Positions 11,261 through 53,900 are shown, counted from the first letter of the stretch. The stretch: 64,000 nucleotides of DNA from Malacoraja senta (GCA_038087875.1 CM075991.1:1116001-1180000); one strand, 5' to 3'. A program made the numbers and translations. Notes: a model not told the origin generated them from the sequence alone.

Positions 11261-11869
11261 TACATGCAGCATCCAAATTCTGAGATTAAATCAAAAGCAA
11301 AATAAATAAAAATGAAGACATTGAACACATAAGTCATAAAGTGGAATGGAAGGTTCTTGAAGCTGTAAAATGATAAATTGCTTCCACTTGAGATTCCATA
11401 TCCCTGCCCTTTTACTGTTGAATTGTTGACTGACATGCGTTTTGATTTTTACGATAAAAACATTTCCTGGTAATAAATTTTGCAATAAGATGACAAAATG
11501 CAAAATATGCTATCCTCTATATTTTCCCAACAGCAACTACATAATTAGACTTCAGCTGCTGATAATCCCAACATTGATGTTAAAGCCCAAAACACCATAA
11601 TAACTGCACCACAAAAGGATATATTCAGATATAATTTTTTGACTGTAGCCCATGTAAGCTTTCAGTTCTCCATATATATTGCTTATGCTAATCACATACT
11701 AAATGTGAAGCAAAGCTGTACATTGCAGCAATTTATTCCAATAATGCTCCAACACTATATGCTTGCATTATTCTTGGGCTATTTGCCCTAACATCATTCT
11801 CTAAGTTCTGTTTCATGCTTCCATAATTGTCACACAAGGTTGTTTGTACCCTGTGTGTTCACCCTTTGC

Positions 11870-12265
11870 TAAACAAGAGATGCTCCCCGGTTCACTCACC
11901 CCGTCCCACCCACCACCCCCTCCCCCGGGACTTTCCCCTGTAACTGCAGGAAATGCATCACCTGTCCTTATACCTCCTCCCTCGACTCAATCCAGGGATC
12001 CCGACATCCTTTCAGATGAGGAAGAGAATTACTTTCACCTCCTCCAACATCATCTACTGTATCCAGTATTCCCGATGTGTGCTCCTATATATCGGTGAGA
12101 CCAAGCATAGACATGGTGATCGCTTCGCTGAACACATGTTCAGTCCGCCTTGGCCTATGTGATCTCCTGGTTGCAAAACATTTTAACTCCCCTTCCCATT
12201 CTGTCCTGGGCCTCCTCCACCGTCAGAGTGAGGCCACACGCAAATTGGAGGAACAGCACCTCCAA
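11870..12265 (+). mobile_element. Penelope-like GIY-YIG endonuclease fragment
   Basis: SSNIIYCIQYSRCVLLYIGETKHRHGDRFAEH and VAKHFNSPSHS. Confidence 0.88.
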
Positions 12266-13812
12266 TAGCCACTCCACTAAGTCTACTCGCCATTCAATTA
12301 TGGCTGATCTACCGTCCCCTCTCAACCCCATTCTCCCCATAACCCCTGACACACGTACAAACCAAGAATCTATCTATCTCTGCCTTAAAAATATCCATTG
12401 ACGGTCTCCGCAGCTTTCTGTGGCAATGAATTCCACAGATTCTCCACCCTCTGACTAAAGAAATTCTTCCTCATCTCCTTCCTAAAGGAGGCTATGATCT
12501 CCGGTCCTAGACTCTCCCACTTGTGGAAACATCCTCTCCGCATCCAATCTTTCCAGGCCTTTCACTATTCGGTAAGTTTCAATGAGGTTCCCCATCATCC
12601 TTCTAAACTCCAGCGAGTACAGGCCCAGTGTGTCGAAAGCACATCATATGTTAACTCACTTATTCCTGGGATAATTCTGGTAAACCTCCTCTGGACTCTC
12701 TCCAGCACCAGCACATCCTTCCTCATATATGGAGTCTAAAATTGCTCACAATACACCACATGCAGTCTAGCCAGCGCCTTATAAAGCCTCAGTATTACAT
12801 CCCTTTGTTTTGTATTCTAGTCCTCTCAATATAAATGCTAGCATTGCGTTTTCCTTCCTTACTACTGTTTTGACTTGCAAATTAACTTTCTGGGAATCCT
12901 GCGCCAGCACTCGCAAGTCCATTTGCACCGTTGATTTCTGAATTCTCTCCCCATTTAGAAAATAGTCTACACCTTTATTCCTACTACCAAAATGCATGAC
13001 CGCACACTTGGTGCAAAGCCCTCAATCCCCCAACCTAAATCATTGATGTACAACGTGACGAGTAGCGGCCCCAGCACCAACCCCTGCGGAATTCCGTTAG
13101 TCACTGGCATCCAATCAGAAAAAGCCCCTTTTATTGCCACTATTTGCTTTCTGCCATCCAGCCAACTTGCTATTGATGCCAGTATCATGGACTCTCATCT
13201 TCTTTAGCACCTTATCAAAGGCTTTCTGAAAATCTAGGTAAACATCCACTGAACCCCACCCCCCCCCTCCCCCCTTGTCTGTTCTGCTATTTTACTTCCT
13301 CAAAGAACACCAACAGATTTGTCAGGATTGACCTCCCCTTCACAAGACCATGCTGACTTTGCCTATTTCACCATGAACTTCTAAGTACTCAGATGCCTCA
13401 TCCTTTATAATGGACTCTAAAATCTTACCAGCCATTGAAGTCAGGATATTTTCCTGTAGCCTATAGTTTCCACTCTTCCACTTGGCTCCATTCTTGAACA
13501 GCGGAGTAATATTTGCAATTTTTCAATCGTCTGGAACCACTCCTGACTATAGTAATTCTTGAAAGATCACTACTAATCCCTCCATAATCTCTAAAGCCAA
13601 CCCTTTCAGAACCCTGGGGTGCAGTCCATCCGGTCCAGTTGACATCTACCTTCAGACCTTTTTAGTTTCCCAAGCACCTTCTACTTAGTAATAGCCACTC
13701 CACCAACTTCCACCCCCTGACTCTCTTGAATTTCAGGCTTGTTGCTGGTGTCTTCTACTTTGAAGACTGATGCAAAAACGCTATTCAATTCCTCTGCCAT
13801 TTCTTTATTCCT
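12266..13812 (-). mobile_element. CR1 LINE fragment with internal deletions
   Basis: GIPQGLVLGPLLVTLYINDL and MHFGSRNKGVDYFLNGE; 3' UTR similar to other CR1 ends here. Confidence 0.85.
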
Positions 13813-13814
13813 CA

Positions 13815-15090
13815 TTATCACTTCTCTTTGATAAGGCCCCACACAAGAGATTAGTGTGCAAAATTAGAACACATCGTATTCGGGGTAGGATATTGACATG
13901 GATAGAGAACTGGTTGGCAGACAGGAAGCAAAGAGTAAGAGTAGGAAGAATAGGATTTAACAGGTCATTTGAATAGGATTTAACAGGTCCAACAGAATAG
14001 ACTTGATGGGCCAAATGGCCTAATTCTGTCCCTATAACTTATGAACACTTAGGTTTAAGGTGAGAGAAGAAAAATATAAAGCAAATCTGATGGGCCACTT
14101 TTTCACATAGAGGGGGTGGATATATAGAATGAGCTGGCAGAACGCAGGTACCTCACAATCATATTTTATTAGCCAAGTATGTTTTGCAACATTCGAGAAA
14201 TTTCATTTGCCATAGTCATACCACTAAAAAGCAACAGAACACACAAAATACATTTTATCATAAACATCCACCACAGTGATTCCTCCACATTCCTCACTGT
14301 GATGGAAGGCGAAAAAAAGTTAAATCTCTTCCCTTCTTTGTTCTTCCGCGGTCGGGGGCCTCGAGCCTTCCGTTGATGGAGTGATCTTGGCTCCCGTAGC
14401 CTGCGGCGTTTGGGCCCTTGCGTCGGGGCAATCAAGCTCCTGCATCCGGGGGGGGGGGGGGGGGGAAGGGGAAATCTCAGATCCTCCGCGGCGGGTCGGG
14501 GCTGGTCGAAACCTTCTGCGTCGTTTGGAGCTTCCCGACATTGGTCTCTATCCAAGACTGTATGCTCCTCGATGGTGAAATCCTCAGGCCGCGGTTGGAG
14601 CATCGATCCCAGGCAAGGGATCGCAGGCTCCGATGGTAAGTCCACGTCCCCGCGGTGGGGCTCAAAGTCAGTCCCGAGCAAGGCCTCCAGTTCCATGATG
14701 TTAGGCCACAGGGTGACCGGAGATACGATCCAGAAAACAATCGCATCTCCGGCAAGGTAAGAGATTGAAAAAAAAGTTTCCCCCGACCACCTTCCCCACC
14801 TCCCACTTAAAACAAACCAGAGAACATTAACATAAACTTTTAAAACACATTAAAAATAACAAAAAAGACAAAGACAGACAGACTGTTGGCGAGGCTGCCA
14901 TTGTGCTGCACCCGCTGGTGGTACGATGACACCATTTAAAAAAACATTTGGGAAGGTTTATGGATAGGAAAATTTAAAGAGACGTGGGCCAAATGCAGCC
15001 AAATATATAAAATGTAAATGTTTAGGTAGGCATCATGACAGCACGAACGAGTTGTGCCGAAGGGCGTTTACTCGCTGCTTAACTCTATGA
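13815..15090 (+). mobile_element. CR1 fragments, split by the 14165-14920 element
   Basis: FDKAPHKRLVCKI...WIENWLADRKQRV; CR1 3' sequence at 14050-14160 resumes at about 14925. Confidence 0.65.
14165..14920 (-). mobile_element. Non-autonomous GC-rich retroposon with LINE-like 3' tail (family unassigned)
   Basis: Interrupts a CR1 3' region; minus strand ends ...GCAAAACATACTTGGCTAATAAAATA; CpG-rich core without credible ORF; shares motifs with 34187-35150. Confidence 0.55.
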
Positions 15091-16102
15091 ACCTCCAGCT
15101 TCACATATCCCTGAAAACAGAGTTCCATGCTTTGTTCTTTCTATATCCATGTAATTATCCAGCCATTTACTTCTGTTTGTGATGTTATTGTTTTAGGTTG
15201 GGAAATTATCTGCACTTTGATATAGTTCTTAATTTTGTCTTTTTTATCACCTTTCCTGACATTCCTGACCCAAAATGCTGCATGAGCTGCTGAGCTACGG
15301 CAGAAATTTGCGTTTTGCTTAACTTTATCCAGTCAGTTTATTGTGGCTTCTTTTGCTTCTTGCTCTTTTTTTCCACCCTTCCTCTTTATCGTTCATCCCT
15401 TGTTTCCCTTTCTTTTAACTCCCTGCTGTTACCTGTTACACTAATTTAAACCCATCTCAACAAAACTGCTAAATACCCCACGTGAAGATTGGTCCTGGTC
15501 CTGCCTTAATGTACAGATTCCACCTTCCCCCAAACCTGTCCCAATGCCTTAAGAATCTAAATATCACCTTCCTCCGACGTTGCTCCAATTATGCAGATGC
15601 TGGAGGTTTAATAAACATATGTAATGATGAACGTTTAACTCATTTTCTGGGAAAGAAATGGGCATGTACCTAGGAACTGAGGAATGATGGTAATGGCATT
15701 GGGATTCTTAATATACAGCGGCAGTAAATTTCTGTTTACCTCCTGTTAGATGTAAGCATTGTGTCAAATTAAAGAATATGCAGGGGTTAGGAGCAATGAT
15801 GGTGGTAGCATTTTTTTGGCATCAATAAAAAATACTTTAGCGAATTTTTCTGGAGTAAAAGCTAAATAAGAATGAGGAATGATCGAAGGCTTGATACCAG
15901 CAGGGTCAGAGGCAATAGTGCAGAAGTCATCCATAACTAGATTGATCAGAATGGAAAAGGATCAGTAGGAGAATATGAGAACATAAGAAATAGGAGCAGG
16001 TGTAGGTTGTTTGGACCTTTAGCATGCTCCACCATTTAACAAGATCGTGTCCACATTTCTACCTGAAACATACTTTGTCTACCCCATCATATCTTTTTAT
16101 TT

Positions 16103-17091
16103 GTAGGAAGGAACTACAGATGCTGGTTTAAATCGTAGGTAGACACAAAATGGTGGAGTAACTCAGCGGGACAGGCAGCATCTCTGGAGAGAAGGAATGG
16201 GTGACATTTTGGGTCGAGACCCTACTGCAGACCGATGTCAGGGGAGTGGGCGGGACAGAGATAGAATTAAGTCGGAGACAGTAAGACTGGTGGGAAAACT
16301 GGGAGGGGGGATGGGATGGAGAGAGAAGGAAAGCAAGGGCTATTTGAAGTTAGAGAAGTCAATGTTCATACCCCTGGGATGTAAGCTGCCCAAGCGAAAT
16401 ATGAGGTGCTGTTCCTCCAATTTGCGCTGGGCCTCACTCTGACAATGGAGGAGGCCCAGGACAGAAAGGTCAGATTGGGAATGGGAGGGGGAGTTAAAGT
16501 GCTGAGCAACCAGGCAATCAGGTCAGTTAAGGCAGACTGTGCGGAGGTGTTCAGCGAAACAATCGCCGAGCCTGCACTTGGTCTGACACCTGGAGCAGCG
16601 GATACAGTAGATGAGGTTGGAGGAGGTGCAAGTGAACTTCTGCCTCGCCTTAAAAGATTGTCAAAGTCCTTGGATGGAGTCGAGGGGGGAGATAAAATGA
16701 CAGGTGTTGCATCTCTTGCGGTTGCAGGGGAAAGTACCTGGAGAGGGGGTGGTTTGGGTGGGAATGGATGAGTTGACCAGATAGCTGCCGAGGGAACGGC
16801 CTCTACCGAAAGCAGAAAGAGGTGGCGATGGGACGATGTGGCCAGTATTGGAATCCCATTGGAGGTGGCGAAAATGTCGGAGAATTATATGTTATATGCG
16901 ACGGCTGATGGGGTGGAAGGTGAGAACAAGGGGGACTCTGTCCTTGTTACGAAAGGGGGGAGCTGCGGGATATCCAGGAGATCCATAGTGAGAGCCTCAT
17001 CTATAATGGACGAGGGGAACCCCTTTTCCCTAAAGAATGAGGACATCTCCGATGACCTGGTATGGAAAATCTCATCTTGGGCGCAGATGTA
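16103..17091 (-). mobile_element. 5'-truncated Penelope-like element with pLTR and 14-bp TSD
   Basis: ICAQDEIFHTRSSEMSSFFREKGFPSSII (RT thumb) and a GIY-YIG remnant; TSD ATATCTTTTTATTT at 16089-16102 and 17092-17105. Confidence 0.9.
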
Positions 17092-20019: not shown

Positions 20020-20219
20020 NNNNNNNNNNNNNNNNNNNNNNNNNNNNNNNNNNNNNNNNNNNNNNNNNNNNNNNNNNNNNNNNNNNNNNNNNNNNNNNNN
20101 NNNNNNNNNNNNNNNNNNNNNNNNNNNNNNNNNNNNNNNNNNNNNNNNNNNNNNNNNNNNNNNNNNNNNNNNNNNNNNNNNNNNNNNNNNNNNNNNNNNN
20201 NNNNNNNNNNNNNNNNNNN
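20020..20219. other. Assembly gap (200 N)
   Basis: Run of exactly 200 N, consistent with a fixed-size scaffold join. Confidence 0.99.
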
Positions 20220-21392
20220 CTAGTCATCAGCACTTCCCGTGTAATCTCCATGCACCACAACACCCAAAAGATTGGTGAGGAAGAGCCTATTCTACTGCAC
20301 ATTGTGCTTTGAGACATGCATGCTGTTAAACCTCTGTAAATACTCTCAGGGTTGCCTCCTTTCAGTGGGCCAAATCAAGTGTTGTCACGTGCCACGAGTT
20401 AACCCTTAAGGTCCTGTCCCACTTTCACGACCTAATTCACGACCTCTGCCGAGTCTGTCCTTGACTCATACTCGCAGCATGGTCGTCACAAGGTCGTAGG
20501 TAGGTCGTGATGCTAGTCGTAGGTACTCGTGGCATCAAGTAGGTCGGGCGTTTTTCTAGCCTGATGAAAAATGTCCACGAGTAAAAAAGGTCGTGAATTA
20601 GGTCGTGAAAGTGGGACAGGCCCTTTAGGCCTTGGTTAGGATGTTAGTGAACTACTCTGATGTAATGAAATCCACTGCGGTACAATGAACTTCAAAACTC
20701 TCAAATTGCAAAACATGTCATACATATGCTTCAACATTTTCAATTACATTCCAAAAACAACAGCTGCCAAATATGGAGACTTGAGGAACTACAGATGAGC
20801 AATCTTGAGCAAAATACAAAGTGCTGTATAAAGTCAGTGGGTCAGGCAGCATCTGAAGACGGAATGGACAGACAAAGCTTCACTTGGGGGCTTTCTTCAC
20901 ACTCCCAAATATGTAATAGTGATGTAATTTCACAATTCTTTCCTGGTTGCACACAGCTTTTGTAGGAATAGAGAAATTGGAAAGGGCAGTTAACCTTATT
21001 GCTCCTGTTCTCTGATACCCAAGGCAGTTTTATATGTAAATCATTCAAGCTTCTAGATCACATTTTAACCTTTGAGTGACTGTGTCTTATATCATACGTC
21101 TGCCAAGAGGTGAAATGTGTACACATGACTAATGCATAACTAACATCCATGTGCACATATTTGAATGCACATGTGTGAGATTAACCAATGCACAACTTAC
21201 ATTTATAATCTGGAGGCTTGCAAGATTTTGGAAAAAAGAATTGTTGTAGACCTTTGCAATAAATTTGCTTACACTGCCTTTATATTTATGCAGAATTCAC
21301 AGTAAGAATCTGACTTAAAAGAATTGGTAACATTAAAGTTTGCAAAATAGAGTGAAAGAGGGAAGTGAGCTCACATATGTTTATGCTGACGT
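20220..21392 (+). repeat. Inverted duplication, left arm (partner 23941-25116)
   Basis: CTAGTCATCAGCACTTCCCG at 20220 matches the reverse complement ending at 25116; GGAAGTGAGCTCACATATGTTT..GCTGACGT ending at 21392 matches the reverse complement starting at 23941. Confidence 0.97.
20409..20624. mobile_element. PIF/Harbinger-type MITE
   Basis: TIR AGG(G/T)CCTGTCCCACTTTCACGACCTAATTCACGACC; TTA on both flanks (20406-20408 and 20625-20627). Confidence 0.85.
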
Positions 21393-23940: not shown

Positions 23941-25116
23941 ACGTCAGCACAAACATATGTGAGCTCACTTCCCTCTTTCACTCTATTTTGCAAACTTTAA
24001 TGTTACCAATTCTTTTAAGTCAGATTCTTACTGTGAATTCTGCATAAATAGGGTAAGCAAATTTATTGCAAAGGTCTACAACAATTCTTTTTTCCAAAAT
24101 CTTGCAAGCCTCCAGATTATAAATGTAAATTGTGCATTGGTTAATCTCACACATGTACACATGTGCATTCAAATATGTGCACATGGATGTTTAGTTATGC
24201 ATTAGTCATGTGTACACATTTCACCTCTTGGCAGACGTATGATATAAGACACAGCCACTCAAAGGTTAAAATGTGATCTAGAAGCTTGAATGATTTACAT
24301 ATAAAACTGCCTTGGGTATCAGAGAACAGGAGCAATAAGGTTAACTGACCTTTCCAATTTCCTCTATTCCTACAAAAGCTCTGTGCAACCAGGAAAGAAT
24401 TGTGAAATTACATCACTATTACATATTTGGAAGTCTGAAGAAAGCCCCCAAAGTGAAGCTTTGTCTGTCCATTCCGTCTTCAGATGCTGCCTGACCCACT
24501 GACTTTATACAGCACTTTGTATTTTGCTCAAGATTGCTCATCTGTAGTTCCTCAAGTCTCCATATTTGGCAGTTGTTGTTTTGGAATACAATTGAAGATG
24601 TTGAAGCATATGTATGACATGTTGTTTTGCAATTTGAGAGTTTTGAAGTTCATGTGTGACATTGTACCTCAGCGGATTCCATTACATCAGAGTAGTTCAG
24701 TAACATCCTAACCAAGGTCTAAAGGGCCTGTCCCACTTTCACGACCTTTTTTACTCGTGGACATTTTTCATCAGGCTAGAAAAACGCCCCGACCTACTTG
24801 ATGCCACAAGTACCTACGACTAGCATCACGACCTACCTACGACCTTGTGACGACCATGCTGCGAGTATGAGTCAAGGACAAACTCGGCAGAGGTTGTGAA
24901 TTAGCTCGTGAAAGTGGGACAGGACCTTAAGGGTTAACTCGTGGTACATGACAACACTTAATTTGGCCCACTGAAAGGAGGCACCCCTGAGGGTATTTAC
25001 AGAGGTTTAACAGCATGCATGTCTCAAAACACAATGTGCAGTAGAATAGGCTCTTCCTCACCAATCATTTGGTGTTGTGGTGCATGGAGATTACACGGGA
25101 AGTGCTTGATGACTAG
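23941..25116 (-). repeat. Inverted duplication, right arm (contains MITE copy 24723-24927)
   Basis: Reverse complement of 20220-21392 with scattered substitutions and small indels; MITE flanked by TAA/TAA. Confidence 0.97.
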
Positions 25117-25696: not shown

Positions 25697-26584
25697 TCTA
25701 TACTATTACTAAAAATCCCATCTTGACCACTTCCATTCTGCTTTGTTTTTAAATTTGCACAAAAATGGTACCCACCCACACCCCCCCCCCACCCCACTCC
25801 CCTTGCACACCCACACGCACCCAGCGGTAGGCCACGGCAGCGGCAGGCCATGGTAGTGCTCCCCCCCACCGGCTGCTGCCTGAGGCCATCCCCCTCCCCC
25901 CCACCAGTCCTTGCCTGAAGCCGTCCCCCTGCCCTGGATGCCCGACAGACCACGCCTGAAGCTGTCCTCATCCCCCAGCTGCAGGAAGCACGCCCCCCCC
26001 CCACCGGCCCCGACAACCCCAGCCTGAAGCTGCCCCCCTGCTCTCACTGCAGGACCCTCCCCCACGGGCTCCCGACAATCCCCGCCTGAAGCCATCCCTC
26101 TCTCCCAGCTGCCGGATGCTCCCCCCTCCCCCACCGGCTCCGACAGCCCCCGCCTGAAGCCGTGCCACTCCCCTGGCTGTAGGACGCACCCCCCCTCACC
26201 GGCGCCCCACAGCCCCCGCCTGAAGCCGTGCCCCTCCCCCGGCTGCAGGACGCTTCCACCCCCCCCGACAGCCCACGCCTGAAGCCTTCCCTCTCCGCGG
26301 ATGTAGGACATTTGTAGGGTAGGGGAAAGGAGAGGGATAGGTGAGGGAGGGATTGGGGGAGGGGAGGAGAGGGGAAGGATGAGCGAGGGTGAAGAGGAGA
26401 GGGAGGGAGTGCTGGAGGATGAGGGGAAATGAGCCGCGCCTGCGCAGTTAGGGGCTATGGATGAGTGATGGAATATTGCGTTGGGGGAACGGGTGAGTGG
26501 TGGAATATTGCGTTGGGGAATGGGGTGCATTGGGGGACCAGGCCTCCCGTGTGACTGGGACCCAACGGGTCCCACTTAGTCTAG
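25697..26584 (+). mobile_element. Non-autonomous Helitron with internal GC-rich minisatellite
   Basis: 5' A|TCTATACTATTACTAAAA; 3' hairpin TGGGACCC-AAC-GGGTCCCA (26556-26574), 6 nt, then CTAG|T; no TSD; about 8 GCCTGAAG-anchored units at 25878-26285. Confidence 0.88.
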
Positions 26585-27969: not shown

Positions 27970-29237
27970 ACTATCTATCTATGTGCTCCTATGGCACAAC
28001 TCTGAATTTAGCGTCTCTTGCAAATTTTTTTATTTTACTTCCAAATCCAGAGTTCAAAGCATTTGCATAGAACAGAATTTCTCATCTTTTTGCCAAACTT
28101 TGTATTTCCTATTTGTCCCTGTGTTCCGTATCATTCTGGCCCCGATCAGAGGTACGCTCAAAATGTTTTTCAGAAATCTAAATAGATTTAGATTTAGATC
28201 TAAATCTACAGCGTGACTCTAAGCTATCCTAGCAATTACTTCTACAAAGAATTATGTACTTTTCAATGAGATCATCTCTTAATCTAGTAAACCAGACAAA
28301 AGACTTAGCCTACTCAATTCCTTCTCACATAATGGACCCACTATTCTAGGAACAAGACTGATTAATCTTCACAGCACTCCATTTAATGCTAATATATGTG
28401 TTTTTGGATGGAGAGACTGAAGTGCATAATTCTGTAGGTATAGTGTTACAAAGGCCCTATATTATTGTACATCACCCCTGTGACTGTGTTTTTATAATTG
28501 CAATTATGTTACAATCATTTATGACGTGCAATTAATTGTTCCACATTGTCATGGATGCAGTGAATACTTAGACATACTGTAGGTGACTTTTGATCTCATT
28601 GCTGCTTGCCTTTCATTGAGCTGCCTTTTCATCTTGCTTTGTACATTTGAAAAACTTCTACTTCCAGATGTTTCTCTACGCCCCATTCAGATTCCCATAA
28701 GCAAATGCCCCATCTAAGTCCCAATTCTGTTAAGAGTAACCTATTTGACGTCCCCAGTTCCCCAGAAATGATGCCTACATCTCACAAATCTAAAGCCCTC
28801 CTTCCTGTGCCATCCCTTCAGCTACCCATTCATTTGCTCTATTCCCCCATAGCAGTTGGCACTGGGACTCATCCTGAGATTACAATCTTTATGAGGTCCT
28901 GCTTTCTGAACTGCCTAAATTCTGTTTCTGGGACCGCATACTTCCTTCCATCTATTGTGTTGGTTACAATGCGGACAACCTTTGTTTCCTCTCTACTGTA
29001 CCACCAGCACTTCATTGAACCAGAAAATTAGTTCAATTGTGCGATCAAGCTAAGTACCAAATTCAGAGACAGGAAAGGTGCCCCTATTCCAATCAAACTT
29101 GCAAAGTCTTCCTCACAAACTTCTGTGGAATGGTGTATTGACACTAGTCAAGCTCCAGCCTGACAGAGTCATATTCACAGAATCACAATTTAGATTCCAG
29201 ATAGTGTCAAGATGCCAGACTGCTCCATCACAATCCG

Positions 29238-29446
29238 GAATGTGTTCTCTGCCACAGAAGGTAGTTGAGGCCAGTTCATTGGTTATATTTAAGAGGGAGT
29301 TAGATGTGGCCCTTGTGGCTAAAGGGATCAGGGGGTATGGAGAGAAGGCAGGTACAGGATACTGAGTTGGATGATCACCCATGATCATATTGAATGGCGG
29401 TGCAGGCTCGAAGGGCCGAATGGCCTACTCCTATGTTTCTATGTGT
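29238..29446 (+). mobile_element. CR1 3' end fragment
   Basis: SLPQKVVEASSLVIFKRELD; UTR ending CCTATGTTTCTATG. Confidence 0.85.
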
Positions 29447-29780
29447 TCTACTCGGGATGGCTGCAGAGTGTGGGTTGGAGGGAGTGAAAAGCCTTTGAAG
29501 TCTTAACACTGACTTTTGACTCCATGATGTCGTGTGGCATCAGGACAGACATGGGCGATGTAACCTTTTTCAGATTGTCAGATCCTCAGCTGATGAGCAA
29601 TATTTGAAAGTAACATTGAAAGCAGCGATGCCACAGGTGCACTCTTGAGTGGAAGAGTTCAAAGTCTATCATCAAAAGAACAAATGTGTTATCTTTTGAA
29701 CAACATAGCTGCTAAGCTAGATCTTTCCATCGTTAGGAATGTGAATAAACACTCTCTAATGTGAATAAACACTCTCTAAT

Positions 29781-31179
29781 AGTACAATCCGTATTTGGAA
29801 ACAAATAAAACAAAATTTAAAATTAAGAAATGTATCACTTTTATTACCTATAGTCAATAACCCTTCGTTTAGTCCTTCTATTATAGATAAAGCTTATACA
29901 CAATGGGATAGACTAGGAATTAAAACGCTTGGTGACTTGTATGAAACTGGAAAATTACTTTTATTTCAACAATTACAAATAAAATATAAACTCGGAAATA
30001 ATCAATATTTTAAATATTTTCAAATATGCGACTATTTGAAAAAATATACAAAAGATCATTATAATAACCCAGTAGATGTATTGGACGAGGCAATGCAGAT
30101 AAAAGCGGAATCAGCAAACTTAATATCATATTTGTATAATATTATTTTAAATGTACAAATACCACCTACGGAGGGTATCAGAAGAGACTGGGAACAAGAG
30201 TTAGCTATTAAAATTTCAAAGGAAAGTTGGAATGAATACTTATTAAACGTGCATAAATGCTCGATTAATGTAAGACACACTTTAATACAATTTAAAATTT
30301 TACATAGATTATATTATTCGAAAACTAAAATTCATAAAATTTTCCCAAACGTATCATCTATTTGTGATAAATGTCAATCCCAAGAAGCTACTATAGCGCA
30401 CTCATTCGTCTTCTGTACAAAAATTCAAAAATTTTGGAATGAAATTTTTGAAATCTTTACAAAGTTATTTAAAACAAGACTGATACCCAAAGCAGAATGG
30501 ATTATCTTCGGAATAACGGAAGATGATCCAGAACTAAATGTGTTTCAAAAGAAATTAATGGACTATGGGTTAATAACTGGAAAAAAGCTAATTCTAAAAT
30601 TTTGGAAGAAGGCTCCAATACCAACTATAAATATGTGGATTTCAAATATGTTTGAAACACTACACCTAGAAGAGATAAGACTCCTCCTAACAGGTAAACC
30701 AGATCACTTCCACCTGACGTGGTCTGCATTTATAGAATTATTACAAACATAGGGTGCAAAAGTACTTTAAAAAAAATAAAAAATTGAGGTCGGGTAAGGG
30801 GGGGATGATAGTTGAAGAGTTGGTATGTCCTATTTACGTAATGCTCAAAAAAATATATTTTTTTCTTTTTTTTTCCCTCTCTCTTTTTCTCTTTTTTTTC
30901 CTAGGGCCTATTTCTTAACTCTTTTTCTTTTGTTTTTAATTTCGCTCTTATAGGGTCTTCGTCCTTTTTTGTTGTTACATTTTCTACACTTTTCTACACT
31001 TTCACTTTTTCCTTCACTTTCTTCTCTCTTTCAATCTTTTCCTTTTCTAGTGTAAAAAAAAATTAATAATAAAGGGAGTACATTAATTGTAAGAAGATAC
31101 AAATGACGAGTATTAATGTATGTGGTTGTAATGTAATGTACTTCTAATAAATAAAAATTAAAAAAAAAAAAAAAAAAAA
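29781..31179 (+). mobile_element. L1/Tx1-clade LINE piece 1 (ORF2 C-terminus, 3' UTR, poly-A)
   Basis: ORF 29937-30752 with CCHC zinc finger CDKCQSQEATIAHSFVFC; T-rich UTR; AATAAA then A20 at 31160-31179. Confidence 0.93.
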
Positions 31180-31378
31180 GAACAAATGTGTTATCTTTTG
31201 AACAACATAGCTGCTAAGCTAGATCTTTCCATCATTAGGAATGTGAATAAACACTCTCTAATTGATAGGATCTAGCCCTGTTTACTTGGTTTTCCCTCAA
31301 TACCCCAATAAATGGTTTCACCACCAGCACACCATCATTGAAGTTTAATTTAGTTTATTTTAGAGATACAGCGGAGAA

Positions 31379-33635
31379 TTTGTATACATCTAAAACGATA
31401 ATTGATTCCGATAATATCACAAAGTTTTTGGATACCTGTAATCTTCCAAAGTTAGAGCTGAAGGAACAAGAGGAACTGGGTGCACAAATCTCAATTAAGG
31501 AATTAGAAGATACAATAAACTCATTAAAGAATGGAAAAACACCAGGCCCTGATGGATTTACTAATGAATTTTATAAAAGCTTTTATGATAAACTAATACC
31601 AAGATTACAAAAAATGTACCAATACGCTTTTAAAAAACGAATACTACCTGATACATTAGCGGAATCAACGATTACATTAATACCTAAGAAAAATAAAGAT
31701 TTAGAAGAACCTGGTTCATATAGAGCTATAGCATTGTTAAACACAGATCAAAAAATATTAGCGAAAACATTAGCTAGAAGATTAAGTAAATACATTAGTA
31801 AATTAATAAACCCAGATCAGACAGGGTTTATCCCTAAGAGATACTCTTCTAATAATATGAGACGTCTACTCAACATAATGCACTCACACAAATCTGAAGA
31901 TCAAGAATTATCAATTATTTTGCTGGATGCTGAAAAAGCATTTGATCAAGTAGAATGGAATTATATGGATAAAGTATTACAAAAATTTCAACTGGGAGAG
32001 AATTTTATTTTATGGATTAAGTTACTATATAACAAACCTACAGCTAGAATACTAACTAATAACATATTATCCTCGAAATTTCAACTATCAAGGGGAAATA
32101 GACAAGGATGCTCATTATCACCACAGCTGTTTGCTCTCATTATTGAACCGCTAGCAGAAAAAATTAGAATACACCCTGATATTCATGGATATAATACTAA
32201 AGACTCATATAATAAAATATCTTTATACGCGGATGATATATTACTGTATATAACAAAACCTCAAATCACTATACCTAATATATTAAATTTAATTGAAGAC
32301 TTTGGATCTTTTTCTGGATATAGAATAAATTGGAATAAAAGTGAAATTATGTCAATAAAACCGAAAGATTCAACACATCTTTTAAAATTCCCTTTTAAAA
32401 TAGCTACAGAAAAATTTAAATATTTGGGAGTCAAAATTACCAGAACATATCAAGGTATGTTCAGGGCAAATTTTGACCCCCTACTTAATAAATTAAATAC
32501 ACTAATTAAATTCTGGAAAACGCTCCCGATGTCTTTAATAGGCCGAATAAACGCAATAAAAATGATCTTTTTACCACAAATCTTATACCTATTTCAATCA
32601 ATTCCTATATACTTACCTAAGAAGTTTAAAAAAAAACTCGACTCAGATATCACTAATTTTATATGGGACTATAAATCACATAGAATACAAAAAACTCATC
32701 TGAATAAACCTAAAGTATTGGGGGGTTTAGCACTACCTAATTTTATGTATTATTATTGGTCAGTAAATATTAAAAACATGATTCAACTGATGGATAACTC
32801 CGCCCAGCAAGTAGACTGGATTGTAATGGAGAAAGAGGATTGCTCCTCTAGAAACATTGGAGCGATCCTCCTCTCTCCAATGAAACTGAATAACATAAAT
32901 TATAATAAGAACCCAATTATTCATAGTACAATCCGTATTTGGAAACAAATAAAACAAAATTTAAAATTAAGAAATTTATCACTTTTATTACCTATAGTCA
33001 ATAACCCTTCGTTTAGTCCTTCTATTATAGATAAAGCTTATACACAATGGGATAGACTAGGAATTAAAACGCTTGGTGACTTGTATGAAACTGGAAAATT
33101 ACTTTCATTTCAACAATTACAAATAAAATATAAACTCGGAAATAATCAATATTTTAAATATTTTCAAATATGCGACTATTTGAAAAAATATACAAAAGAT
33201 CATTATAATAACCCAGTAGATGTATTGGACGAGGCAATGCAGATAAAAGCGGAATCAGCAAACTTAATATCATATTTGTATAATATTATTTTAAATGTAC
33301 AAATACCACCTACGGAGGGTATCAGAAGAGACTGGGAACAAGAGTTAGCTATTAAAATTTCAAAGGAAAGTTGGAATGAATACTTATTAAACGTGCATAA
33401 ATGCTCAATTAATGTAAGACACACTTTAATACAATTTAAAATTTTACATAGATTATATTATTCGAAAACTAAAATTCATAAAATTTTCCCAAACGTATCA
33501 TCTATTTGTGATAAATGTCAATCCCAAGAAGCTACTATAGCGCACTCATTCGTCTTCTGTACAAAAATTCAAAAATTTTGGAATGAAATTTTTGAAATCT
33601 TTACAAAGTTATTTAAAACAAGACTGATACCCAAA
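31379..33635 (+). mobile_element. L1/Tx1-clade LINE piece 2 (uninterrupted RT; lacks both ends)
   Basis: About 750 stop-free codons: KTPGPDGF, SYRAIALLN, LDAEKAFD, RGNRQGCSLSP, LYADD, FKYLG, CCHC; near-identical to piece 1 where they overlap; ends at internal CCCAAA. Confidence 0.95.
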
Positions 33636-33801
33636 AAAGAACAAATGTGTTATCTTTTGAACAACATAGCTGCTAAGCTAGATCTTTCCATCTTTAGGAA
33701 TGTGAATAAACACTCTCTAATTGATAGGATCTAGCCCTGTTTACTTGGTTTTCCCTCAATACCCCTATAAATGGTTTCACCACCAGCACACCATCATTGA
33801 A

Positions 33802-34100
33802 GTTTAATTTAGTTTATTTTAGAGATACAGCGGAGAAACAGGCACTTCGGCCCACCAAGTCCCTGCCGACCTGCGATCCACACACATTAACACTATCCTA
33901 CACTCACTGGGGACAATTTACAATTTTACCAAAGCTAATTAACCGACAAATCTGTATATTATTTGGAGTATGGGAGGAAACCGAAGCACCTGGAGAAAAC
34001 CCACGCAAGTCACGGGGAGAACATCAAAACTCGGTACGGACAACACCCGTAGTCAGGATCAAATCTGGGTCTCTGGCACCGTAAGGCAATAACTCTACCA
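33802..34100 (-). mobile_element. HE1-like V-SINE
   Basis: Same family as 17187; its tail is partly copied into 31340-31378. Confidence 0.85.
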
Positions 34101-44752: not shown

Positions 44753-45017
44753 TCTTTTGTCGTTTTTTCTTTCAACATAATTTCTGAAAAGATAGGAGGT
44801 AAATAGGAAGATTAAATGAGAACTTACCAGTTTGAAGTTTGATCTTTATTTTATGAGAAGTTACGATGAGGGATTACGTGAAGAAGCCTGCCAGCCCGCA
44901 TTGCCTTCAAAGCAGCGGTGTGAAATCACAGGAAACAGTTGCTGACCTGATTATAGGAAGATTCGAGAACTAGAACTACCACATAATCTTTATGAGAAGA
45001 GGGTTGGGAGCGGAGGG

Positions 45018-45130
45018 CACGTAATCCCTCATCGTAACTTCTCATAAAATAAAGATCAAACTTCAAACTGGTAAGTTCTCATTTAATCTTCCTATTTTAC
45101 TTCGAAGTCATGTGAGTGACAATGTGAAGA
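45018..45130 (+). repeat. DIRS internal complementary region (ICR)
   Basis: 45018-45097 is an exact 80-bp inverted copy of 44801-44880; 45095-45130 is a near-exact inverted copy of 50422-50457. Confidence 0.95.
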
Positions 45131-45308: not shown

Positions 45309-46230
45309 TTATTGAATAGAACTTGAAATTGGGTTGGTGAACGAACCCGGCCTGGCAATCAATTTATTATAAAAGGTTTGGAAAGTCCACTCATTCGACC
45401 ATCCTGCTGTCACTAGGATGCGGTCCAGTGGAACCTCCATGAACCTTGCTGCTGATGTTATTGCAGCCCTGGTGGAGTGAGATTTTAAAACATCAGTGTT
45501 CACTCCTGCACAAGCCAATACATATCTAAACCATCTGGAGATGGTCTGCACTGAAAACCTCTTGTGTGATTTTTGTGGCTAACGAACATTGCCTGCTCAG
45601 TGCCTCTAAGGTTCATTGTAGCCTTAAAATATTGATGAATATGTGTGACAACCCACAATCTATGGGCCATAGGATATGCCAGAAATTCCAGCTTTAGACC
45701 CAACGCCCCCGGTCTGCTTTGTTTAATTAGCTCATTTACATAGAACATTATTTTGTTGGAAGATATAACCATTCTGTACAGCCGTAGCTTATGCAACGAC
45801 TGGACGCATTGCGCTGAAACCAGCGCCATGAGCATAACTACCTTATATGAGAGCCGGGCCAAAGATAAGGATGTAGCTGGAGCCCACCGGCGAAGTAGTG
45901 TTAACACAATGTTAACATCCCATACCGTGTACCTGGGCCTGGGAGGATTTGTGTTAAAGATATCCTTCATAAATCTGGATATCAGAGGGTGAGACCCGAC
46001 AGAGTGGGTCCCGATCCCAGCAGCAAATATGATGACAAGGCACTTTTGGCACAGTTAATGGCACTATAACTTAATTTCCCGTCAAAGAACCATTTGAAAG
46101 GAACTCCAAGACGTCAGTTATCCGTGCCGTATTATATGTTATATTAGAATTTAAACAAAAACACTTCCCATCTCCTGATGTAGGAAATGTACTGCTTCTT
46201 GGTGCTATCCCTCCAAGCTGCAGTGATCAC
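45309..46230 (-). pseudogene. DIRS tyrosine recombinase, frameshifted
   Basis: PPRPRY..WDVNIVL, MALVSAQCVQSL (the usual catalytic Arg position reads Cys), HSTR box, GW...TF..FY; split over several frames. Confidence 0.9.
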
Positions 46231-47085
46231 GACCACGGTTCGGTCTGACAACCCGAGCCCCAGGAACGGTCTTCGCAGAGTCTACAAATCAATAAATTAA
46301 TTCTATCATGCAGTGGGTGGGCTTCCCGAGTCACGGGATGAACCAGCAAATTTTTGTGTTTAGAAACAACCATATAAGGTTCTATTATCATTCCCAACAT
46401 CAGCGGGAACCATGGCTGCGTAGGCCAGTCAGGCACTACCAAAATGCTTGAAGCGGAATCTTGCTGGATTTTTTGCAAGACCCGACTGACGAGGCAAAAT
46501 GGAGGAAAGGCATAAAAGAACATTCCTCCCCAGTGTAGCGAGAATGCATCTATCGCCACTGCCCCTGGGTCTGGCTCCCATGCAACAATTTTGGCAATTG
46601 GTGATTGAGCCTAGATGCAAACAAATCAATATTTGTTTGCATCTATACTGTTCCATACCGAGCAACAATGTCGTTAAATACTTTGTGATCCAACATCGAT
46701 TCTGTGTTTTCATTAAATTTGCGTGACCTGGTGTCCGCCACCATGTTGAACCTACTTGGCAACTAGGTAGCTGAAATCCAAATGCTTTTTTCCCCCCATA
46801 CACCAGTGCCAAATGAGGTTAGCTAAACTATCACAGAATACTGACTTGATTCCACCCATGTGATTAATATATGCCACCGCTGTAGTGTTATCAATTTGTG
46901 GTTGAACATGCAGATTATGCATATTCCCACAATAAGCCTTTAATCCATAGAATGCCCCCAGCAACTCCAGGTAGTTGATACCATCTTTGAGCACTAGCAT
47001 CAGTTTGTAATATAACTGAAGGTTTACTGACCAAAATGTTACTGGAGCAATGCTGAATATTGGTCGTCCACCATTGTAATTCTGA

Positions 47086-47917
47086 GGTACACAAAAATGC
47101 TGGAGAAACTCAGCGGGTGCAGCAGCATCTATGGAGCGAAGGAAATAGGCAACGTTTTGGGCCGAAACCCTTCTTCAGACTGATAGGGGGTGGGGAGAAG
47201 AAAGGAAAAAAGGAAAAGGCGGAGGAGGAGCCCGAGGGCTGGGGGAGGGGAGGAGACAACCAGATGGCTGATGAAGGGGAGGGGACAGCCAGGGCTAGCA
47301 GAATTGGGAGAATTCAATGTTCAGGCCACCAGGATGTAGACTGCCCAAGCGGAATATGAGGTGCATTTCCTCCAATTTACGGTGTTGCTCGCTGTGGCCA
47401 TGGAGGAGACCCAGGACAGAGAGGTCAGATACGGAATGGGAGGGGGAGTTGAAGTGCTGAGCCACCGGGAGTTCAGGTTGGTTATTGCGGACCGACCGGA
47501 GGTGTTCGGCGAAACGATCGCCAAGCCTCCGCTTGGTCTCACCGATGTAGATCAGCTGGCATCTAGAGCAGCGAATGCAATAGATGAGGTTGGAGGAGAT
47601 GCAGGTGAACCTCTGTCGCACCTGGAACGACTGCTTGGGTCCTTGAATGGAGTGGAGGGGGGAGGTGAAGGGACAAGTGTTGCATCTCTTGCGGTTGCAA
47701 GGGAAAGTACCAGGGGAGGGGGTGGTATGGGAGGGAAGGGAAGAATTGACAAGGGAGTTACGGAGGGAGCGGTCTTTGCGGAAGGCAGACATGGGGGGAG
47801 ATGGGAAGATGTGGCGAGTGGTGGGGTCACGTTGGAGGTGGCGAAACTGACGGAGGATCACTTGTTGTATGTGACGGCTGGTGGGGTGAAAGGTGAGGAC
47901 TAGGGGGACTCTAGTTC
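47086..47917 (-). mobile_element. Young 5'-truncated Penelope-like (Neptune-type) insertion inside DIRS copy B
   Basis: Stop-free 188-aa frame with CNRKRCNTC linker and LIYCIRC...IYIGETKR; 11-bp TSD TGTAATTCTGA (47075-47085 and 47918-47928); copy A has the empty site near 822-832. Confidence 0.95.
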
Positions 47918-50900
47918 TGTAATTCTGATATAGCTTCAGCTGGTAATAGCATAGGTCTGTTAAAATGACCTAAATGGTACTTGAGAGCTTGCTCCTTTGC
48001 ACGTTGTAAATTCTGATAATGCAAAGGCCCAAATTGTGCAGCTGGAAAAACAGCCACTATTTTGCCAATTACACTAGCCACCTGGCGAATAGAAGGCTGC
48101 TTCATAACAACAAGGTTGTTACAGGCTTCTATTGATTCTAATCTCTTGCCCCAGGGCAGAATCACAGATATTAATAGAGTTAATGGTAAATCCCAAATAA
48201 TTAATAACTCTAGTTGGTATCAACTTGGATTTAACTGGATGGACGAGAAACTCCAATTTCTAAAAAATGAGTTTCGTGGCTGAAACAGCTAATTTAGCCA
48301 ATTTTAGCGTTTTCCTATGATTAGAATATCATCCAGTTAGGCCATACAATGTGTTTTTGAGCTCTAAGCAGCCCAAGCACCGGCTTTAATAATTTGGTAA
48401 ATATCCTGGGGCTGGTTAACCCATTAGGCAACGCTTTAAACTGCCACAGTTGCCCCATCCAGCTAAATTTCAAATATCTCCAGTGATCCCTGTGAATGGG
48501 CACCGAATAGTATGCATCTTTGAGATCGATGCATCCCATAAACCATCCTTTGGAAATCAGTTGTTTGGCTGTAACGAAGTTTTCCATTTTAAAATGTCTA
48601 TACTGCAAATGAGAGTTAAGTTGTGTTAAATCAAGGATGATCCGACATCCTACATCTTTCTTTTGTCTAGAGAATATATTGGAGACGAATTGGTGATGTT
48701 CATGACTTGACTTCTCGATTACCCCTTTTGTGTATAATGTGTGAATTTCAGCTTGTATATCCAAACCTTCTTGTTTGGAGTGAACAAATGCCCGGCTTGA
48801 TGTATGTTGTGTGGGTGGCAATGATTTGGGAAGAAATTCAATTTGGAACCCTTGTATACTGTGCAGTATAAACAGATCTGATGTTATACATCCCATTCGT
48901 GCAAAAACAAGTGTAATCTACCACCAACTTGTAACTGGTCCGCACACCCCATGTTCCGGAAAGAACCAGACCCACCTACCTCCATGGTTACCGGTGGTCT
49001 TATGGTAGGCCCAAAGGCCCCTGATTCGGGTTCTATTTCCGTCCTCGAGGTTTGGAGGGTTGGATTGCTAGGGTGCGTGGATTGCACATTTTCCATGAGG
49101 GCCGGCTTGGGCCTTGGCCTAAAAAGACCTCTGCCCAGAGAAATCAGCTTTTGAGCTGCCACCAGCTTCAGCGAACCGCTTACTGCTGATGGAGGCGTAA
49201 GGGTGTTGTCACCGAAACGGTGAAGCTTTGCACGTCGTTGGTGCCTTGATTAGCCTGACAGCTTTTGCTTCCTCATCCAGGTCTTTTACCTGTTTGGGTA
49301 GGTCTTCCCCGAACAGAAGATTCGGCGGCTGAACCTTGCTGCCCTTACATAAGCCTGCAAATTTGGGATTTAAGGCAGGTCTGATGGCGTTCTTCCGAAA
49401 GCAGTTCATTTCGAAGTGTGCATTGCACATCAACGCCAGGGCATCCTGCTGGACGTCCGATAAGGGCCATCCATCCACAGATCTGGCAAATGCCGTGATG
49501 CCTAAAGCCAGTAATTCGTTGGAGTTTCATTTCCTGGGCTTTGATGCCCCCTCCAATGTATCCCCAGATAGAGCTGTTCACTGCCGGCACTTTCAGGGAT
49601 GCACAATTTACAGGTGTATGGTATTTTGCAGCCGTTTCAACCATCACCTGTTCCTGTAATTGATGTGACGTGAGGTAGTTGATGCTGGAAGCCAGCTCTT
49701 CTTCCAGCAGCTCCCCTGTTTGCGAGGGTATCACAAACCTTGATGCCATGGCAGGCAATTCTTGAACCTCACGCATGTCATGCATTCCAGTATGTTCCAC
49801 GGACATACCTCAGAATTCGGAGTCAGTCATATACTGACCCCGTACACTCCCCTCCTCAGAGTGGGAGACATTAAGCAGCCCTGGACCAGGCGCTGCCGCA
49901 GGCTCGCAAGGAGACCTGCGATATGTCTCCGTATCAGGGAGCATATCATGATGGAGCATCCTTTCCATAAGGTGCTCCATCCGGGATAAACGCCCGAGGA
50001 CGCTATCCATGGTTGTAGGAGGGGACTCATCTGAGTACACAGGCCTCGCCTCTCAGACTTCCGTTTGGCTTTGCCCCCTTTCAGGGTTGCCAAAGTGCTT
50101 TGGGCAATCACCAAGTCTGAAGTTGCTGACCCCACTGTCAGCGACTCGGACGGCGAAACCGCCGGCCACCGGCTACCCGCACTCCCGTGGTCCTCCGTAG
50201 CCAGTTTCCCTGCGGCCCGTCTGGGCTTCGCCCTGGATTTTTCCATTATCCGTTCAGCAATTGGAACTCTGTAATGAGAATTTTTACCCAAAAAACGACC
50301 TCAGAATAAGTTTGAAACTTACCTGCAGGGTTTTACACTTACCACTGGAGAAGCGACGCTCCTCCCAACCAGTCGTGCGCCATGCGTTAGACGTATTGAC
50401 GCGCATGCGGGCTGGCAGGCTTCTTCACGTAGTCACTCACGTGACTTCGAAGTAAAATTGATGATTTTACAGGACCCTGGAAGTTGCCTATGGGAGAATA
50501 ATTCTCACGGGACAGCTGCAGGCCAATGTAGATAGATTCACAGGGAGTCTTCACCCCTACAACCTCGCGCAACCCACCCCCCCCCCTCCCCAACCCCACC
50601 ACTACAGTTTTACATCTTGCTGTCAAACAGAGACCAAGCTCTTCCTTGCAGAAGGGGACATGTCAGGGATGGATGGATGCCGATCTAGCTGACTAGATAA
50701 CAGCACTTGGGGGAGCTGGGGAATGAGCTTCCTGACAGGGAGTCATTAAAGTACAGGATCAAAATACAAGAAGATAAAAACCCTCCAGCAGATCTACATT
50801 TTAAATGATCAATTCTAAAGAGATCAATTCTAAAGAGAGTTCATTGAACACAATCTGACCATCACCAGTGAAGTTATATAACAATGACATTTAAATCTGG

Positions 50901-53900
50901 TTCATACAGGAACAGTTTAATCATCTTGTACTATTCCCTTCCCCTAACAACGCTGTGTGATATTTATCACAGCTGCTTAAGTCACAGCTGTTCTAAATTC
51001 TGTTAGATTCTCTATGGTTTATTGTATGGCTCAGGAGGGAATTCAGAACATCGGTGTTCTGGCTATCTCTCCCCCTTCGAGAGCTATTTGCTTAGCTTCA
51101 TCCCCTTCCCTCTCGAAATGCTAGCTATCTGAAGTTAAAAAATTTCCCCCCTCTTTTTACTTTACCACAACTTTCCATTGCTAAAAATCGCTGCCTGATT
51201 CCCTGTCACATTTACTTGCTGTAACAAACAGAAACCATTTGTTTCTGCCAATATCTCATCGGAAATTAACCGAGGAAATAACAAAAGTCTCACTTGCTGC
51301 AGCTTTATATTAGGTGCAAGTACAAAAATAAATCAACAGACAATAAATAAACAGCAATTAGAGTCAGCATCGTGCAGCACAGAAACAGGGCTTACCTACC
51401 CAACTTGCCCATGCCGACCAAGTCCCATTTGTCTGCATTTGGCCCATATACCTCTCAACCTTTCTGATTTATGAAAACATTGTACCTGTCTCAGCTACTT
51501 CCCTGGCAGCTATCACCCTCTGTGTGAAAGGATCACCTCTCCAGATTCTATTAAATCTTTCCCTCCTCACCTTCACTTACAGTATATGCTCCTGTTCTTG
51601 ATTCCCCTACTATGGGGGGGGGGGGGGGGGGGAACTACTTGTACATTCCATCTATTTATCTCATCATGTTATACACCTCTGTAAGATCATCCCTCAGCCT
51701 CTGCACTCCAAGGAACAAAGTCCTAGCCTGCCCAATCTTTCCCTGTAGCTCAGATCTCTGCATTGCAGCACAATGGCATTTTTCCGACAGCACAAAGACC
51801 AAAACTGAACAATACTCCACATGCACTCACCAATGTCTTGTACAACTGTAACAAAATGCCCCAACCTCCTTACTCAACTCCCTAATGAGGAAGGGCAAGT
51901 CAAGTCAAGTCAACTTTATTTGTCACATACACATACAAGATGTGCAGTGAAATGAAAGTGGCAATGCCTGCGGATTGTGCAAAAAACTACAGAACAGAAC
52001 AGAATCAGTATTTACATATTAGAAAAAAAAACAAGCAATTTTAAAAAGACACAACACAACAGTAAATTGGTACAGTAAATTAGTCCCTCATGAGATAAGA
52101 GTTTACAGTCCTAATGGCCTGTGGGAAGAAACATCCTCTCTGTTTTCACAGCATGACAGTTTGCCTCACCGTAGCAGCTGAAACGGTCCGTTGCTGGGGT
52201 GCTAGGGGTCCTTCATTATGTTGTTGGCTCTGGATCTGCACCTTCCGATGTATAGGTCCTGCAGGGAGTTGAGTGTAGTTCCCATAGTGCGTTCGGCCGA
52301 ATGCACTACTCTCTGCAGAGCCTTCTTGTCCTGGGCAGAGCAGTTCCCAAACCAGATTGTGATGTTGCCGGACAAGATGCTTTCTACAGCCCCTGAGTAG
52401 AAGCACTGAAGGATCCCCAGAGAGACTCTGAATTTCCTCAGCTGCGTGAGGTGGTAAAGGGGCTGCCTTGCCTTACTCACCAGTGCGGCAGTGTGTGATG
52501 TCCATGTCAGATCCTCTGTGATGTGGACTCCCAGGTATTTAAAGCAGCTCACCCTGTCCACAGTAGCCCCATTTATCTCCAGTGACGTATACTTCCTCGG
52601 ATGTTGTGCCCTTCTAAAGTCCACAATCAGCTACCTAGTTTTTATGACATTCAAGAGGAGGCTGTTGTCCTGACACCAGAGTGCCAGATTAGCCACCTCC
52701 TCCCGGTAAGCCTTCTCATTGTTATCAGAGATCAGGCCCACCACCACAGTGTCATCAGCAAACTTGATTATAGAGTTGGAGCTGAACCTGGCCACACAGT
52801 CATGTGTATACAGGGAGTACAGTAGGGGGCTGAGGACACAACCCTGGGGGGGGGGGGGGTCCTGTGTTCAGGGTGAGGGTGTTCGATGTATTTCCTCCCA
52901 TCTTGACTACCTGGGGCCTGGCGGTGAGAAAGTCCAGGACCTGGAGGCATACAGGGGAGTGTTAAGCCCCAGTTCCAGTAGCTTCTCAGCAAGTCTGGTG
53001 GGGACTATCATATTGAAGGCTGAACTGAAGTCAATGAACAGCATCCTCACATAGCCCCCCTTCTGGCTGTCAAGATGAGAGAGAGCGGTGTGCAGAACCT
53101 GGGAGACCGCATCGTCCGTGGATCTGTTCGGATGGTATGCGAACTGTAGCGTGTCCATATTGCGAGGGAGGAAGGCGCAGATGTGGTTCTTGACCAGCCT
53201 CTCGAAGCATTTCATGACTACCGAGGTGAAGGCCACAAACAAGCTGGAGAGGCATTCCTTGGTACAGGTACAATGATGGATCTTTTGATTGCCAGCATAC
53301 CAGAAGCCCTCTTCATCACCCTATTTACCTGTCATGCAACTTTTGGGAACTATGTATTTGTACTCCAACATCTCCTAAAACCTCTGATAAAGTAAAGTCT
53401 TTGGTGAGTTTTCCCTGTGATTGCATCCATGTGCTTTCATTCAAGATCCAGTAACAACTGGGTCGATCCCCCAGCTCAAGAAAACTCATATTTGCAGAAA
53501 CATACCATTCAATCTCTCAAGCTTTCTGTTAGTCAATAAGATTGTCTCAGTCTGAAGAAGGGTCTCAACCTGAAATGTCACCTATTCCTTCTCTCCAGAG
53601 ATGCTGCCTGACCCGCTGAATTGCTCCAGCTCTTTGAGTCTATCTTCAGTGTAAACCAGAATCTGCAGTTCCTTCCTACAGATTAGATCATACCCTCTGT
53701 TCCACTCACATGTACATTGCATTCACATAACAGAAACAGGCCACTTAATTTCTGGTTGTGTTTATACTCCACACAAGTGACTCCCTCCCCATCTTTGTTC
53801 ATAAAACCAATGAATGTTATTTTCTCCTTCACACATTTGACCACGGCCTTTAAATACCTCTCCTTTAAACTTACCCTTGTGACCTTAAAACTATGCCTTC

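Follow-up and report, generated by a model that had tools for sequence, protein, structure and literature searches.

In the genome assembly of Malacoraja senta (GCA_038087875.1), the 64,000-nt stretch CM075991.1:1116001-1180000 (the window; coordinates are counted from its first letter) carries what looks like a real, young compound insertion of an L1 retrotransposon at one locus. Two truncated L1 pieces, both in plus orientation, are separated and bordered by three copies of one target sequence, T; from left to right, the window sequence reads T (87 nt), a 20-bp slip, an L1 3' end with poly-A, T (203 nt), a 2.26-kb internal L1 piece and T again. With moderate confidence, we read this arrangement as one L1 insertion attempt in which reverse transcription was primed twice at one nick, a single event being favoured because it explains at once the two long target copies, the use of one nick, and the common subfamily and age of the pieces.

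Layout of the locus and identity of the element

A first-pass annotation of the window had described three target copies around two L1 pieces, the last copy continuing into a short interspersed element (SINE), and re-reading of the sequence bore this map out. For comparison with outside data, contigs of 4 of 24 public runs (X1, X19, X20 and X21) were aligned to 28900-32922. The locus comprises:

29670..29678, minus strand: nick site of endonuclease type, reading TTTT/GA on the bottom strand, with the cut at 29673/29674; X19/X20 contigs cross it uninterrupted
29674..29760, plus strand: T1, the leftmost target copy, 87 nt; retains the old G at 29732, and the one-T contig agrees with it through 29732
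29738..29780, plus strand: 20-bp tandem slip of the T1 end, at the 5' joint of piece 1 (TRF: period 20, 2.2 copies, 100%)
29779..31159, plus strand: L1 piece 1, 5'-truncated; last 323 ORF2 codons, CCHC motif, stop at 30752, then 3' untranslated region (UTR)
31160..31179, plus strand: poly-A of piece 1, 20 A, the last 4 of them common to T2
31176..31378, plus strand: T2, the middle target copy, 203 nt; changed privately at 31307 and, by G to A in a CpG, at 31234
31374..31378, plus strand: GAGAA, 5-nt microhomology, both T2 end and piece 2 start; X1/X21 L1 contigs align from 31374 and extend upstream in L1
31374/31379..33635, plus strand: L1 piece 2, a 5'- and 3'-truncated ORF2; 754 open codons, reverse transcriptase (RT) domain with YADD
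33630..33639, plus strand: junction of the piece 2 3' end with T3; reads CCC, six A, G, without poly-A tail
33635..33837, plus strand: T3, the target copy that runs on into the right flank; one private change, G to T, at 33693
33812..34100, minus strand: older SINE with a degenerate tRNA-type head near 34100; 73-79% like three other copies in the window

A chance origin of the T copies is excluded: there are three of them, each at least 87 nt long, 99% alike and with a common left end. T positions 1-177 occur nowhere else in the window, and positions 178-203 (the last 26 nt) are SINE 3' tail, into which T runs because the SINE lies on the minus strand. The site is adjoined on its left by the 3' end of a very abundant repeat (29245-29432; depth 3e6 to 2e7 in X19/X20, loose ends at both borders), which we take to be a CR1/L2-type tail of a long interspersed element (LINE). 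The SINE is presumably of the V-SINE/HE1 family, and we assume that it and the LINE tail resemble those of sharks and rays.

The two pieces overlap by 713 nt (29779-30491 versus 32923-33635) and differ there by exactly 3 substitutions, at 29832, 29962 and 30263, as the first-pass count of three differences in some 710 bp had it. Frameshifts are absent from both coding pieces. The 31160-31179 run is the only run of A or T of at least 11 in the window, and the 64 kb hold no further copy of this L1.

The RT domain of piece 2 matches Pfam RVT_1 (E 1.7e-39), and against the PDB the piece aligns with human L1 ORF2p residues 418-1161 over 741 residues (E 2.7e-108), versus 1.5e-25 or weaker for R2; by sequence, the element is thus placed among L1-group non-LTR (lacking long terminal repeats) retrotransposons, its RT nearer to L1 ORF2p than to R2-type RTs. 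Consistent with the L1 group, piece 1 ends in a C-terminal CX2CX8HX4C motif, the stop at 30752, a 3' UTR and the 20-A run. The nearest full-length relatives are endonuclease-RT proteins of about 1,266 amino acids with 52-54% identity; they contain an APE endonuclease (PF03372; xth-like match), which is absent from both truncated pieces here. Named relatives of piece 2 come mostly from bony fishes, under hit names that read only 'LINE-1 reverse transcriptase-like', and an NCBIfam search returned no family for the piece. When other copies were sought in metagenome contigs, the 3'-end motif gave 0 matches and the ORF2 C-terminus 67 pattern hits, 0 of them confirmed. At 32628-32630, piece 2 reads AAA where about 71-83% of family depth (X19, X20) has TTT; the site lies where a T run meets an A run, keeps the frame, and is either a slippage variant or a long-read error.

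The target in outside samples and the substitution record

Runs X19 and X20 are two samples of one study, share one organism label and contain 0.77 and 0.76 of the sequence words. Alike in both, a single 455-nt contig spans 29415-29732 and resumes at 31235-31371; it consists of flank and one T, without the 20-bp slip and without piece 1, and T depth is 1.10x and 1.23x that of the flank. One T without piece 1 at flank-level depth marks T as a single-copy target outside the L1. In the same samples, L1 bins are 2e4 to 1e5 times deeper than T's flank, contig depth not being equal to copy number; the L1 family is very abundant, and T is no part of it. The idea that T is a part of the family consensus, which the first-pass annotation had named as refuting its reading, is thereby rejected. 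A pre-existing target found once in these contigs and duplicated on both sides of the insertion is also what target-primed reverse transcription (TPRT) leads one to expect. Nor is T a 3' transduction, since it lies beyond the poly-A, adjoins both flanks directly and occurs as a single copy. Tx1-like targeting, raised at first pass, is unsupported, given a single-copy T and a very abundant L1; a target-specific element of Tx1, R1 or R2 type was rejected on the same depths, and Rfam gave no match in the window.

An empty allele had been named as the thing to look for. What emerged is a site with one T and no piece 1 in two samples, but the contig stops 7 nt before the T2/piece-2 joint, so that by itself it cannot tell an empty site from one holding piece 2 only. 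More probably, the site is empty, because the contig is unbroken through the T start, no second contig appears in 31195-31329 (observed depth 25.3 and 2.39, against 25.3 and 2.39 expected from the 455-nt contig alone) and depth stays at 1.10/1.23x flank. Over 828 bases of flank and T, X19/X20 show 6 differences from the window (0.7%), a divergence that makes them another haplotype or a close species. X1 and X21 contigs cover the L1 and one flank repeat without T, and therefore say nothing about the site in those organisms. No filled-allele joint occurs among the joints listed for the 4 runs, an absence that proves little as the poly-A stretch 31145-31191 was skipped.

One base differs in all three target copies, as the first-pass annotation had noticed: G, A and T at 29732, 31234 and 33693 in T1, T2 and T3. 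The ancestral base is G, within a CpG; a double hit at such a site has a chance of about 1-5%, which is mildly unusual, and a CpG mutated twice leaves no need for a special mechanism. T2 and T3 further differ at 31307/33766. Measured against the outside contigs, T1 is free of private changes, T3 carries one and T2 carries two. In the overlap of the L1 pieces, the family carries piece 2's base at 29832 and 29962, so both changes are private to piece 1; the third difference would fit CpG decay in piece 2, its site not being among the 40 of 193 difference rows listed. Both pieces carry a minority family base at 30165 and 30407, as judged against another sample's L1 pool. With about 0.2% substitutions per copy since insertion, the pieces appear to be of like age and there is no sign of an age gap, 3 differences in 713 having little power to detect one.

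Joints, priming and competing explanations

Both 3' joints fall at one site, between C and AAAAG on the top strand (29673/29674), which on the bottom strand is TTTT/GA. A T-rich endonuclease site at the 3' joint, as TPRT predicts, is thus present; TTTT/GA is a tolerated variant of TTTT/AA. The common insertion base proposed at first pass stands in that both pieces sit at one nick, with the cut better placed between C and AAAAG than between AAAA and GAAC. Piece 1 ends in a normal poly-A tail. Piece 2 ends in CCC-A6-GAAC, to which the L1 supplies three A and the target four; two A go beyond the target, and because in-register AAAG pairing cannot yield six A, the extra A call for slippage, a tail of very few A or a deletion that reached into an earlier tail. 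On the 5' side, piece 1 is joined through a 20-nt slip via an AAT microhomology, followed by a 2-nt AT microhomology to the L1; piece 2 is joined through the 5-nt GAGAA at target positions 199-203 from the nick, and as the L1 contigs of X1/X21 align from 31374, these last 5 nt of T2 are the microhomology. Microhomology at 5' joints is typical of 5'-truncated L1 (PMC11702581), and flank-derived extra sequence at the 5' joint, like the slip of piece 1, has been described for fish LINEs (PMC4245944). The target duplications, 84-87 and 198-203 nt long, exceed the canonical limit for target-site duplications (TSDs; at most 20 bp).

Two candidate causes and one candidate arrangement were set aside: a special fold of T behind the long copy (z = -0.17); premature polyadenylation as the needed cause of the piece 2 end, where the tail is missing and a TTTAAA stands 15 nt upstream, though 45% of L1 positions have a hexamer of this kind; and twin priming, which needs opposite orientation of the complementary DNAs (cDNAs), both pieces here being plus.

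A single event could have run as follows. ORF2p would have nicked the TTTT/GA motif at 29673/29674, and the TTTT end would have primed on an internal AAA of the L1 RNA, two A being added by slippage, to leave the 3' truncation seen in piece 2. After 2.26 kb, the cDNA end would have annealed to the target's top strand through the GAGAA microhomology, 199-203 nt downstream of the nick; extension along the target back to the nick would then yield T2 and restore a TTTT-3' end at the same base. From that end, priming on the poly-A that piece 1 still carries would give its 1.4 kb, in an order that is our reconstruction, and closure at target position 87 would follow the 20-nt slip through the 2-nt microhomology at that joint. 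T2 would thus be a templated copy within the insertion, and the net target duplication would be 84-87 nt. A variant in which the break passes a replication fork and two sister ends are extended, with identical product, is counted within this reading. The first-pass proposal of iterative TPRT with re-copying of target is consistent with the one nick, the re-copied target, the like age and the minority variants in common, and a single event is the probable course.

Several points weigh against this account. The internal priming site appears unremarkable: the first 5 nt of the target are matched equally well at 150 of 2,930 L1 positions (5%), the level ranging over 3-9% with the length scored, and AAA occurs 213 times in the 2,930 nt. 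The first-pass argument that CCCAAAG resembles AAAAG is correspondingly weak, the match having two extra A and being out of register besides. Two successive insertions, or a doubling plus deletions, give an identical final sequence, and six differences among five copies are too few to reveal a short interval between two events. Even the net duplication, 87 nt, is long, and re-priming does not account for it. The subfamily variants are judged against another sample's L1 pool, in which depths are not copy numbers, and like age and common variants were seen with two samples only, both without piece 1. The one-break case on record differs from this locus in that its second piece derives from the opposite strand (PMC12807874). 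Finally, among the runs searched none proved to carry the filled allele, and no read or contig spans the structure; the layout rests on the assembly.

Two separate insertions at one endonuclease site are an unlikely competitor to one attempt primed twice. Piece 2 would have come first, with a 198-203-nt duplication, and piece 1 later, into the intact TTTT/GA of the upstream copy, with an 84-87-nt duplication; the geometry fits exactly, as the upstream copy retains the original nick context. A double insertion leaves target between the elements, and Drosophila non-LTR dimers with differing 5' truncations have been so read (10.1101/158386). Copies of the family abound, and T[CT]AAAA sites have a density of 2.66 per kb; a rough estimate that assumes both 1e4 copies and a 3-Gb genome gives a handful of expected same-site pairs genome-wide. 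Yet two independent long duplications plus a 3' truncation would be required at one site, and long TSDs made up 1 of 25 ZfL2-2 insertions in wild-type DT40 cells (PMC2666801). Moreover, the pieces look to be of the same age and have minority variants in common, and a one-piece allele was found in 0 of the 2 samples covering the site (X19, X20). Successive insertion becomes likely only if the family or the locus routinely makes long duplications.

More doubtful is a single 2.9-kb insertion with a 203-nt duplication that was doubled by unequal exchange between the T copies and then lost two segments, one from T position 87 into L1 copy 1 (with a templated 20-bp slip) and one from the internal AAA to the poly-A of copy 2. 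This would account for the near identity of the pieces and would make the six A at the piece 2 end a microhomology of the internal AAA with the tail; local duplication and deletion of L1 units have been described in an array on human chr11 (PMC13192797). It takes four events, however, with two kilobase deletions within 6 kb while only about 0.2% substitutions per copy accrued; one deletion must stop within a few bases of the nick, and the initial 203-nt duplication remains unexplained. An assembly artefact, in which reads or haplotypes were collapsed or wrongly joined at a young L1 of high copy number, seems improbable. Spanning evidence is absent, and elsewhere in the window lie a 200-N gap and two nearly identical 16-kb copies whose alignment has 54 gap openings. 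Against this, three states at one T site exceed what two haplotypes supply; T2, T3 and piece 1 each have private changes relative to the outside data; the joint microhomologies are visible only through outside L1 contigs; both coding pieces are frameshift-free; and merging two alleles would still require two real insertions at one nick.

The wider window and relation to known systems

Elsewhere, the window contains a duplication at an offset of about 47 kb (822-16961 versus 47918-64000, with 65 substitutions, or 0.41%, and 54 gap openings; 1-832 versus 46247-47085). Together with the 200-N gap at 20020-20219, it may reflect a doubled haplotype, not a real tandem repeat, or imperfect polishing. 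About 830 nt (47086-47917) are exclusive to the second duplication copy, with the short direct repeat TGTAATTCTGA at both joints, and can be read as a young presence/absence insertion; its open reading frames (ORFs) presumably encode a Penelope-type GIY-YIG tail. A 1.2-kb inverted repeat (20220-21392 and 23941-25116, 93.7%) begins exactly at the assembly-gap edge, and a perfect 80-nt inverted repeat (44801-44880 and 45018-45097) adjoins an ORF at 45500-46054 that we take to be a DIRS-type tyrosine recombinase. Positions 25859-26276 form a GC-rich minisatellite with a unit of about 62-68 nt.

The locus shows how an L1 can triplicate host DNA and bears on two open points of LINE biology, the closure of the 5' side of an insertion and the restart of ORF2p at an already used nick, for which most evidence comes from tumours and cultured cells. 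If it arose in one event, it is a clean genomic record of a switch from cDNA to target followed by re-priming at the same base. It is a long shot that this fish-type L1 family routinely anneals its cDNA end to the target 80-200 nt downstream, extends it back to the nick and primes there anew; were that so, long duplications and same-nick serial cDNAs would be a regular family product, and TPRT at a regenerated nick a normal pathway, readable from thousands of genomic copies. A single locus, with no evident function, cannot prove a mechanism; its value lies in the query that it defines, namely target-L1-target-L1-target loci and long duplications across an abundant family.

Tandem Alu insertions were reportedly described by El-Sawy and Deininger in 2005, and internal priming by Srikanta in 2009. 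The ingredients of the locus have each been published, and it is a rare case of a complex insertion that does not represent a new kind of element. Long TSDs (PMC2666801, PMC4245944, PMC2912911), internal priming (PMC5322556), L1 insertions that contain two RT products or copies of nearby genomic DNA (PMC11702581, section 7 and Fig. S10 legend) and paired RT reactions starting from opposite ends of one site (PMC13526784; PMC12807874) are all on record, and presence across species has been used to separate sequential from simultaneous insertions (PMC13174262). A literature search, with subscription papers and supplementary case tables (those of 10.1101/2024.08.27.596794 among them) largely outside it, found no report of two same-orientation, overlapping L1 cDNAs from one base with a target copy-back between them; in PMC13141329 and in the supplements of PMC12807874, nothing bearing on this layout came up.

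The locus resembles human L1 insertions with templated sequence or multiple RT products in having a short target-adjacent copy (<250 bp) inside the insertion and more than one cDNA (10.1101/2024.08.27.596794; PMC11702581), as well as an endonuclease motif, a poly-A tract and joints with microhomology. Among 3,598 solo-L1 insertions of a tumour set, 22 have a templated stretch of target DNA of <250 bp from within 15 bp of the site (10.1101/2024.08.27.596794), and T2, which is 203 nt long and begins at the nick, falls into this class of size and position. Unlike in the human complex insertions, both cDNAs here are of the same L1, share one orientation, have 713 nt in common and begin at a single target base, and the copy runs exactly back to the nick with a net duplication of 84-87 nt; unlike the tumour and cell-line events, this is an aged copy in a non-mammalian assembly, and hence presumably germline.

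Tandem dimers from double insertion (R1, P element and non-LTR elements; 10.1101/158386) have the same target-element-target-element-target order and differing 5' truncations, but target copies of 8-33 nt against 87 and 203 nt here, where one element lacks its 3' end and the target is single-copy and not ribosomal DNA. In breakage-replication/fusion, one ORF2p break likewise gives a poly-A-primed and an internally primed truncated L1 piece at nearby parallel breakpoints (PMC12807874 Fig. 1d); the outcome there is two nested deletions, whereas here target is gained and the pieces stand in series in one orientation. Insertions with TSDs of >20 bp share the 5'-truncated LINE, the long duplication and the extra 5' bases copied from the flank (PMC4245944, PMC2666801, PMC2912911), but are reported there as single and mostly from cultured cells, against two long copies at one nick here. 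Internally primed, tailless retrocopies also are 3'-truncated and end at an A-rich internal site (PMC5322556); here, by contrast, the template is the L1 itself, with 1-3 nt of complementarity, two extra A and a possible origin by deletion.

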